Below are positions 5,418-5,990 of a DNA stretch of 5,990 nucleotides, piece after piece. This DNA comes from a virus (Duplodnaviria > Heunggongvirae > Uroviricota > Caudoviricetes): the IMG/VR virus record IMGVR_UViG_2529292747_000021, positions 1-5,990 of that record; one strand, written 5' to 3'. The notes beneath the pieces are model-generated. The model searched no databases, was not told the origin of the DNA, and saw only the letters and a program-made list of their open reading frames with translations. The stretch's first letter is position 1; each line of letters opens with the position of its first letter. The translations under genes were made by a program, and so were the position numbers.

Positions 5418-5752
5418 TTTATCCTCCATTAAGGGCTGAATTAAAAATGGAGACCAACACGCTGCTACGTGTGGTCGTGCGCCGGACACAGATAAGAATC
5501 CGGCACTGACAGTTTACTGAAAGGATATATCCCTGAAAAGTCAGGGCATAACACGAAAGTGCACGGCGAAGTCCTTCTCCCTTAGAGCCGTCGTTAAATT
5601 TAATTCGACCGTGCGCTTCCGGTTGTGGCAATCCGCGAAATGGCGCGGCGGTAAGTATGGCGGGGTTATTCTTTCCCCGTTGAGGACACCGGGTTGTCAG
5701 GTTGACCATACGCTTAAGTGACAACCCCGCTGCAACGCCCTCTGTTATCAAT

Positions 5753-5805
5753 ATTCTGGTGACATTTGGCGGTATCAGTTTTACTCCGTAACTGCTCTGC
5801 CGCCC
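5753..5805 (+). ncRNA. dicF: DicF small RNA (cell-division-inhibiting sRNA of the dicB operon), prophage copy
   Basis: ATTCTGGTGACATTTGGCGGTATCAGTTTTACTCCGTAACTGCTCTGCCGCCC is near-identical to the 53-nt DicF sequence of E. coli K-12 as I recall it (TTTCTGGTGACGTTTGGCGGTATCAGTTTTACTCCGTGACTGCTCTGCCGCCC). It is followed by a T6 run. It sits downstream of ydfA/ydfB-like genes, as in the Qin dicB operon. Confidence 0.8.
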
Positions 5806-5811
5806 TTTTTT
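5767..5811 (+). terminator. Rho-independent terminator forming the DicF 3' end
   Basis: GGCGG (5767-5771) pairs with CCGCC (5800-5804) around an internal CAGTT/AACTG stem, followed by TTTTTT at 5806-5811. Confidence 0.7.
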
Positions 5812-5816
5812 AAAAG

Positions 5817-5973
5817 TGAATTTTGTGATGCGGTGAATGCGGCTCAGCGCACGCGGAACAGTTAAATCGGTAAAGCGGTCATTTGCTGAGTAACGAGAAT
5901 GCTCTGTATCCGGCGTTAATTGTTAACTGGTTAACGTCACCTGGAGGCACCAGGCACCGCATCACAAAATTCA
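5817..5973. repeat. 19-bp perfect inverted repeat flanking a 119-bp spacer, immediately downstream of DicF
   Basis: TGAATTTTGTGATGCGGTG at 5817-5835 is the exact reverse complement of CACCGCATCACAAAATTCA at 5955-5973. The spacer contains GTTAAT/GTTAAC/GTTAAC hexamers (5915-5935) and a CCTGG...CCAGG hairpin (5941-5954). Confidence 0.7.
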
Positions 5974-5990
5974 TTGTTGAGGACGCGATA

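Follow-up and report, generated by a model that had tools for sequence, protein, structure and literature searches.

A genuine dicF gene with three substitutions relative to K-12, in a prophage window combining CP-933P-type and CP-933M-type sequence

The analysis of the whole stretch of DNA presented above (5,990 nucleotides, hereafter the window) identified positions 5753 to 5805 as a genuine dicF gene, encoding an Hfq-dependent prophage sRNA of known family and in a known allelic form. Taken as a whole, the data are best explained by a functional-type dicF copy, a reading in which we have high confidence, with a predicted target set that is perhaps somewhat narrower than that of K-12 DicF. 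Among sRNAs acquired horizontally, DicF is a textbook case of control over core host genes, and in EHEC it also feeds into virulence regulation through pchA. In K-12, its Hfq-dependent repression of ftsZ leads to filamentation (PMC5069750). The gene, its presence in prophages of the CP-933M, O and P types and its multicopy state in EHEC are all published, and the exact allele of the window is found in hundreds of sequenced genomes. As to its identity, the window copy is therefore nothing new. The value of the present observations is modest and lies in two natural substitutions located in experimentally mapped pairing helices and in the differences between the four copies of the Sakai genome; studies treating "dicF" as one entity could therefore average non-equivalent RNAs.

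Identification of the dicF gene

The original prediction considered the 53-nt stretch to be a DicF homologue, listed about three substitutions relative to K-12 and proposed alignment to the K-12 locus and scoring by the Rfam covariance model as a check, both of which the sequence passed. A scan of the whole window, on both strands and with all Rfam families, returned DicF (RF00039) at 5754–5805 on the + strand with 76.9 bits, for a gathering score of 48, covering positions 1–52 of the 52 in the model (E = 2.8e-16); it was the sole family at or above threshold. K-12 dicF, annotated as a 53-nt ncRNA (NC_000913.3, 1649382–1649434), obtained 76.7 bits in the same test and aligned without gaps to positions 5753–5805, with 50 of 53 nucleotides identical. 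The three differences are T>A (nt 1, position 5753), G>A (nt 12, position 5764) and G>A (nt 38, position 5790), referred to as U1A, G12A and G38A in the RNA, and are exactly those given in the original prediction. The features that define DicF were all found, namely the model score, a terminator hairpin followed by a U-run, a site upstream of dicB and a computed complementarity to the ftsZ ribosome-binding site. The elements of the gene and of its downstream spacer are the following:

5753..5805, + strand: dicF, 53-nt DicF sRNA, U1A/G12A/G38A allele (Rfam, K-12 alignment, identity to the Sakai Sp4 copy)
5757..5769, + strand: 5' single-stranded pairing region, nt 5–17 (xylR), holding G12A (duplex prediction; use of the 5' end in xylR regulation was established by experiment, PMC5069750)
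5777..5804, + strand: 3' pairing region, nt 25–52 (ftsZ, pykA, manX, pchA), holding G38A (site-limited duplex predictions)
5768..5811, + strand: terminator-type hairpin with stems nt 16–22/46–52 and nt 24–28/38–42, then 6 T at 5806–5811 (minimum-energy fold; Rfam consensus structure satisfied)
5812..5835, + strand: 5' arm of an inverted repeat in the dicF-dicB spacer, 24 nt, 92% complementary to the 3' arm, the arms lying 119 nt apart
5955..5978, + strand: 3' arm of the inverted repeat, whose last base lies 12 nt ahead of the dicB start codon

The DicF encoded by the Qin prophage of K-12 (b1574) resembles the window copy in its length, its fold, most of its sequence, its site directly upstream of dicB and the inverted repeat separating the two genes. 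The ftsZ-pairing loop is the same in both, and the loop together with the 3' side, which carries the ftsZ pairing, is identical except for nt 38. In contrast, the window RNA has the three substitutions, one extra T in its terminator (a run of 6 instead of 5) and weaker predicted pairing with xylR and pykA. The minimum-energy structure is the same for the two alleles (–15.5 kcal/mol for the window, –15.9 kcal/mol for K-12): with G38A, the wobble U28·G38 that closes the loop becomes a U28-A38 pair, and nt 1 and nt 12 sit in the single-stranded 5' region. The hairpin was not listed by a simple terminator scan, which allows loops of 3–8 nt only, and since the DicF loop exceeds this limit the omission is not evidence against the hairpin. 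A strongly conserved stretch upstream of dicF gave no match to any Rfam family at E ≤ 1.

Genomic context of dicF

The dicF gene is located about 1.7 kb downstream of an immunity region, within the PL-type early-left operon of a lambdoid prophage and directly upstream of dicB. The features surrounding it are, from left to right:

652–1392, – strand: DnaC-like helicase loader (Pfam IstB_IS21 and Bac_DnaA)
1399–2376, – strand: O-like initiator (Pfam HTH_36 and a weak DnaD_N)
2384–2809, – strand: ydaT, CII analogue (Pfam YdaT_toxin, 2.8e-10)
2806–3108, – strand: ydaS, Cro analogue (Pfam YdaS_toxin, 3.3e-12)
3137..3166, – strand: PR933P-type promoter (TTGACT/TAAACT), in the paaR2-ydaS intergenic region and facing ydaS (promoter scan, PMC8630535)
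3206–3577, + strand: paaR2, CI analogue, without Pfam match (region 99.9% identical to EDL933 CP-933P, with the same gene order)
3598–3789, + strand: paaA2 (Pfam PaaA2, 1e-19)
3791–4069, + strand: parE2 (Pfam ParE_toxin, 1.9e-16)
4154..4181, + strand: PL933P-type promoter (TTGACT, 16 nt, TAAACT), facing ydfA (promoter scan; assigned by hexamers and position)
4252..4348: mosaic crossover interval, CP-933P/Sp12 type on the left and CP-933M/Sp4 type on the right (identity comparison)
4359–4514, + strand: ydfA, DUF1391 (Pfam, 1.7e-28; annotation from the yccA-adjoining prophage, locus L001)
4516–4644, + strand: ydfB (annotation from the same locus)
4656–5045, + strand: 129-aa ORF that takes the place of ydfC (annotation from the same locus)
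5232–5417, antisense: 61-aa ORF

The immunity region of CP-933P is made of the ydaT-ydaS and paaR2-paaA2-parE2 operons, PaaR2, YdaS and YdaT being analogues of CI, Cro and CII, respectively (PMC8630535). In the window, the divergent ydaS-ydaT and paaR2-paaA2-parE2 operons were found beside the O-like and DnaC-like genes, in the published order. A promoter beyond parE2, PL933P, has the same –35 and –10 elements as PR933P and is repressed by PaaR2 and YdaS (PMC8630535), and the promoter scan of the window found the TTGACT and TAAACT hexamers to be common to the PL-type and PR-type sites. Based on sequence and position, the PL-type promoter at 4154–4181 is the probable start of a ydfA-ydfB-orf129-dicF-dicB transcript, which would begin near 4181. 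The context differs from that of K-12 Qin, where the operon is under DicA/DicC instead of a PaaR2/YdaS-type immunity region, and where ydfC occupies the position of the 129-aa ORF.

The original prediction described dicF as embedded in a CP-933P/Rac-like immunity region. The CP-933P character of the immunity region stands, on the basis of the gene order (YdaT, YdaS, PaaA2 and ParE-toxin domains) and of 99.9% identity over 1–4348, but dicF itself lies outside this region. Nor does the CP-933P label extend to the dicF allele, which is of the CP-933M/Sp4 type, the true CP-933P/Sp12 carrying the K-12 allele.

A join between two prophage types

Over positions 1–4348, the window has 99.885% identity with CP-933P in the resequenced EDL933 and 99.9% identity with the CP-933P/Sp12-type loci L003 and L154 (seen in O157:H7 strain 4276 and in the resequenced EDL933). 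Positions 4188–5990 are 99.6% identical to L001, the prophage adjoining yccA, which is Sp4 in Sakai and which we take to be the counterpart of CP-933M in EDL933. As 4192–4251 holds six of the seven positions that differ from the Sp4 type, and 4349–5990 differs from it at one base only (5395), the crossover is placed in the interval 4252–4348, a short way upstream of ydfA; apart from that base, the window and L001 are identical across the ydfA-ydfB-129-aa ORF-dicF operon. The window as a whole was also considered as a yccA-adjoining prophage, an assignment rejected because the match extends only over 4188–5990.

On the right side of the crossover, the likeness to Sp4/CP-933M comprises all 53 nucleotides of dicF with their flanks, ydfA, ydfB, the 129-aa ORF and the antisense 61-aa ORF, and the contigs carrying the exact 129-aa protein display it in Sp4/CP-933M-type contexts only. 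Sp4/CP-933M has, however, an immunity region of its own, with a 133-aa HTH repressor, a PaaA-type antitoxin and a 95-aa ParE toxin, whereas that of the window is of the CP-933P type. Conversely, Sp12/CP-933P shares the immunity region of the window at 99.9% identity, but its dicF is the K-12 allele. The early-left operon typical of CP-933P (an ECs_2282-family gene, ydfC and a K-12-type dicF) was not found downstream of PL in the window, and CP-933P matches the window at only 90% over 5476–5990.

The junction of the two prophage types in the window could have arisen by natural recombination, which is plausible, or it could be a chimeric or collapsed assembly of two paralogous prophages, which would affect the context and not dicF itself and which we regard as rather unlikely. 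An assembly artifact would account for the fact that, in 5426 complete E. coli genomes, no single locus covers more than 88% of the window, and that the joined arrangement is seen in none of the 119 IMG/VR loci listed, in no phage record and in none of the contigs carrying the exact ParE2 or the 129-aa protein. It would also agree with the ordinary arrangement of CP-933P in the resequenced EDL933, with ydfC and the K-12 dicF allele, and with the position of the switch, inside a stretch (4188–4348) common to both prophage types at about 96% identity, the crossover falling in its identical part (4252–4348). Yet lambdoid prophages commonly recombine at such shared segments, and real complete genomes show a visible mosaic past parE2, with at least five different gene sets at this place.

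Expression and processing of the RNA

On the model of the published CP-933P circuit, the lifting of repression by PaaR2, the CI analogue, would allow the PL-type promoter to transcribe the operon through dicF and dicB. The dicB gene starts at the first base past the end of the window (ATG at 5991), as annotated in loci identical over 5600–5990, and a DicB Pfam domain is recorded in the dicB product of locus L130.

The 3' end of the 53-nt RNA would result from intrinsic termination at the hairpin and U-run, the structure being present in the window and the processing scheme being that of K-12. At the other end, RNase E would generate the 5' terminus by a cut at 5752/5753, in the context AU|AUU. 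The substitution at nt 1 changes this junction from AAU|UUU in K-12 to AAU|AUU in the window, still AU-rich. RNase E prefers an AU-rich context, and the AAU|AUU junction is expected to be compatible with processing.

In K-12, RNase III produces a DicF species of 72 nt, as stated in a passage of PMC9438474 that cites Faubladier 1990. The 5' arm of the inverted repeat would contain the 3' end of this species, so the stem 5812–5835/5955–5978 is a probable RNase III substrate, and by analogy with K-12 its cleavage would probably give a longer DicF species from the window operon as well. Of the 24 pairs of this stem, 16 are formed in each of 50 distinct homologous sequences, and the pair 5831:5959 covaries (C-G in 30, U·G in 17 and U-A in 3).

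Predicted pairing of the window allele with its targets

Compensatory mutations have assigned the pairing with ftsZ and pykA to the 3' region of DicF and that with xylR to its 5' end (PMC5069750). The original prediction that distinct 5' and 3' regions serve different targets thus holds with a refinement, pykA using the 3' region and only xylR using the 5' end. It also proposed predicting the pairing of the variant with the ftsZ, xylR and pykA leaders, which we did with site-limited duplex predictions in ViennaRNA, using K-12 leaders and, in addition, pchA from Sakai; the pairing was the same for ftsZ and weaker for xylR and pykA. The energies given below are hybridization terms computed over short segments and corrected only roughly for sRNA accessibility, and the opening energies of the sRNA regions differ between alleles by at most 0.4 kcal/mol for the core sites. 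Duplexes computed over the whole length of 140–310-nt leaders were set aside, as they were implausible, contained very large interior loops and inflated the differences between alleles.

With ftsZ, nt 25–52 pair with positions –28 to –1 at –27.9 kcal/mol for both alleles, nt 38 being unpaired in an interior loop. By covering the ribosome-binding site in this way, DicF would block FtsZ synthesis and cell division, the pairing being computed and the regulation that described in K-12 and EHEC. The same 3' region is predicted to pair with manX and, in EHEC, with pchA. The pchA duplex has –23.9 kcal/mol for both alleles, and that of manX goes from –33.9 in K-12 to –34.8 kcal/mol in the window, where G38·U is replaced by A38-U. 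The predicted manX site (+35 to +52) coincides with the footprint published at G150–C167 (PMC5861419).

The xylR duplex is the most affected, with a change from –20.3 kcal/mol in K-12 to –14.5 kcal/mol in the window, i.e. a loss of 5.8. The K-12 RNA forms a 13-bp helix with xylR +7 to +19, in the middle of which G12A introduces an A·C mismatch, leaving helices of 7 bp and 5 bp. For pykA the energy passes from –26.4 in K-12 to –22.0 kcal/mol in the window, as G38A costs the G38-C pair that adjoins a bulge; the 8-bp core helix is kept. G12A is thus predicted to weaken the pairing with xylR substantially and G38A that with pykA moderately; the pykA effect may be small given the intact core helix, and the interrupted xylR helix may still be regulatory with Hfq.

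Two laboratory mutants provide a scale for these values: DicF11, in which xylR regulation is relieved, and DicF23, in which pykA repression is abolished (PMC5069750). From the oligonucleotides in Table S4 of that study, rather than its figures, we infer that they are G7C and G36C, respectively. With these identities, the G7C xylR duplex has –15.7 kcal/mol and the G36C pykA duplex –22.6 kcal/mol, and the predicted xylR loss caused by G12A is as large as that of the laboratory mutation that abolishes regulation. On the target side, the xylR site of Sakai is the same as in K-12 and the pykA leader is unchanged in one O157:H7 genome carrying the window allele, therefore no target-side compensation is seen. 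In silico, an altered target range finds support for xylR, weaker support for pykA and none for ftsZ. Given the weakened predicted pairing with xylR and pykA, a range narrower than that of K-12 DicF is a reasonable hypothesis and may apply to the window allele.

Distribution of the allele and alternative readings

Of 5426 complete E. coli genomes searched with positions 5753–5811, 4011 contain a DicF-like sequence. The best copy is identical throughout the alignment in 325 complete E. coli records, nt 12 and nt 38 being covered in every case. The dicF of the window, with its flanks, is identical to the copy in prophage Sp4 of O157:H7 Sakai, and the allele is not new, having already been sequenced and annotated (Sakai Sp4, and Z1327 in CP-933M). 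Ten distinct Sp4-type contexts were found, six with A1/A12/A38 and four with A1/A12/G38, which suggests that G38A arose last, on an A1/A12 background. With a search pattern that accepted any base at nt 12 and nt 38, the bases at nt 1/12/38 were distributed as follows among the 119 IMG/VR matches listed:

T/G/G (K-12 type): 93 of 119
T/A/G: 12 of 119
A/A/G: 7 of 119
T/T/G: 5 of 119
A/A/A (window allele): 1 of 119
T/A/A: 1 of 119

These counts indicate that nt 1, 12 and 38 are ordinary polymorphic sites. Two other readings of the allele have to be weighed against that of a functional-type copy with a perhaps narrower target set. The three substitutions might be neutral, the window RNA regulating the same targets as K-12 DicF, xylR and pykA included, a reading that we place only a little short of an even balance. 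The variation at these sites (T or A at nt 1; G, A or T at nt 12; G or A at nt 38, among the matches listed) speaks in its favor, as do the A found at the nt-12 position of the Rfam consensus, the almost equal scores and the common fold of the two alleles, and the helices left with xylR and pykA. It is harder to reconcile with a predicted xylR loss at least equal to the one caused by G7C, whose single mismatch in this helix relieved regulation experimentally (PMC5069750), and with O157 xylR and pykA sites devoid of a compensating change.

According to the second reading, the element would be a mere internal terminator or processing site limiting dicB, with no relevant trans-acting RNA, which we consider very improbable. 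The hairpin with its U-run is structurally a terminator, lysogeny keeps the operon repressed in the CP-933P circuit (PMC8630535), and the CP-933M copy of EDL933, DicF_1/Z1327, yielded only 2 RNA-seq reads in standard medium (PMC5331693), a count to be read knowing that reads are hard to assign among near-identical copies. However, both pairing regions are kept far beyond the needs of a terminator, including the ftsZ-pairing loop, identical to that of K-12, whereas the Sp9 copy of Sakai keeps its hairpin with a changed loop, at 43.5 bits, which argues that a terminator can drift and that the window copy has not. Moreover, passages of PMC11774850 and PMC7873438, citing Melson and Kendall 2019, report that DicF of EHEC is expressed under microaerobic conditions and activates pchA. 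We retain a functional-type dicF copy, whose three substitutions sit at naturally variable sites, leave the predicted fold unchanged and, from the computed duplexes, may make the target set somewhat narrower.

The dicF copies of EHEC

The dicBF loci have been reported in CP-933M, O and P (PMC5069750), and EDL933 has four DicF entries, including Z1327 and Z6077 (PMC5331693). Four dicF copies in EHEC, with a role in the activation of pchA, are likewise mentioned in the passages of PMC7873438 and PMC11774850 that cite Melson and Kendall 2019. In Sakai, the copies of Sp12/CP-933P, Sp11 and Sp9 belong to the same family as that of the window and are each followed by a dicB homologue. The four Sakai copies are all mutually different:

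Sp4: window allele (U1A, G12A, G38A), 76.9 bits
Sp12: K-12 allele, 76.7 bits
Sp11: K-12 allele with A39G, 75.0 bits
Sp9: nt 1–20 kept, loop and 3' half different, 43.5 bits (cut-off 48)

One may speculate that these copies form an allelic series dividing the targets between them, although we consider this unlikely at present. The Sp4/CP-933M allele would keep the pairing with ftsZ, manX and pchA and lose effective xylR regulation and some pykA regulation, Sp12 and Sp11 would keep all targets, and Sp9 would keep only the 5' (xylR) seed; the window would then correspond to an Sp4-type allele moved by recombination under the bistable CP-933P immunity switch. If such a series were real, the effect on the cell, through its division, its sugar metabolism or both, would depend on which prophage is derepressed.

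Mosaic structure of the immunity region and early-left operon

The junction at 4252-4348 joins a replication and immunity part of CP-933P/Sp12 type (1-4348, including the PL promoter) to an early-left operon of CP-933M/Sp4 type (4349-5990). The immunity part carries two promoter-like sites that fit the published descriptions of the CP-933P promoters and have identical hexamers (TTGACT/TAAACT):

3137-3166 (-), promoter-like site of PR933P type
4154-4181 (+), promoter-like site of PL933P type

The PL site lies directly to the left of the point of recombination, which would place the Sp4-type dicF operon under CP-933P-type immunity control. This join was not found among the complete E. coli genomes, IMG/VR loci or contigs examined, and it represents either a natural recombinant of paralogous prophages or a chimeric assembly.

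Within the early-left operon, we also identified an antisense reading frame:

5232-5417 (-), 61-aa ORF, no Pfam match

The CPVC...CPEH spacing in its sequence suggests zinc binding. In CP-933P/Sp12, an "ECs_2282 family putative zinc-binding protein" is annotated at the corresponding place, a possible counterpart by position.

Noncoding sequences flanking dicF

The approximately 165 nt 5' of dicF (5590-5752, +) are noncoding, yet differ from K-12 at just 3 positions, in contrast to the adjoining genes, which have been exchanged between prophages. No Rfam family matched this stretch. Folding predictions point to a structured RNA (z = -2.2 for 5585-5811), with hairpins at roughly 5660-5680 and 5690-5730, and in the predicted minimum-energy fold of the precursor GGCGGUAAGUAUGGCGGGG (about 5647-5665) pairs with the 3' side of DicF.

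On the other side of dicF, the spacer that separates it from dicB is bordered by complementary segments:

5812-5835 and 5955-5978, long-range inverted repeat on either side of the dicF-dicB spacer

The repeat is kept in 50 distinct homologues, in which one pair, 5831:5959, covaries (C-G, U·G or U-A). Cleavage of this stem by RNase III probably yields the longer DicF species, and the stem may also block access to the dicB leader. Within the spacer, 5819-5968 (+) scored 33.6 bits against the Rfam family STnc100 (RF02076), below the cut-off of 47, with E = 4e-5, and full-scoring copies of this family are present elsewhere in Sp4 and Sp12 (locus L005, 29745-29935, and locus L152, 39673-39845). The spacer may be distantly related to this prophage RNA family.

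Annotation and diversity of DicF copies

The dicF feature is absent from the PGAP annotation of the RefSeq records for L001 (the CP-933M/Sp4-type locus next to yccA), L002, L003 and L154 (the last two of CP-933P/Sp12 type), a K-12 MG1655 record included. The curated NC_000913.3 was the sole K-12 record, of those examined, to carry the annotation, so that surveys based on annotation will undercount DicF copies. Two further copies in the Sakai genome are:

7222-7271 of L151 (-), diverged DicF-like element of Sp9, 43.5 bits, under the Rfam cut-off of 48
1580-1632 of L152 (+), dicF allele of Sp11, the K-12 sequence plus A39G (GUGGCUG)

The Sp9 element retains nucleotides 1-20, which include the xylR seed, and a terminator hairpin but diverges in the loop and the 3' half; its pairing with ftsZ is predicted to be lost (-15.4 versus -27.9 kcal/mol). 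The 56-nt "DicF_3" listed for EDL933 may correspond to this diverged type. The Sp11 copy is a third allele within the Sakai genome, no two of whose four dicF copies are therefore alike.
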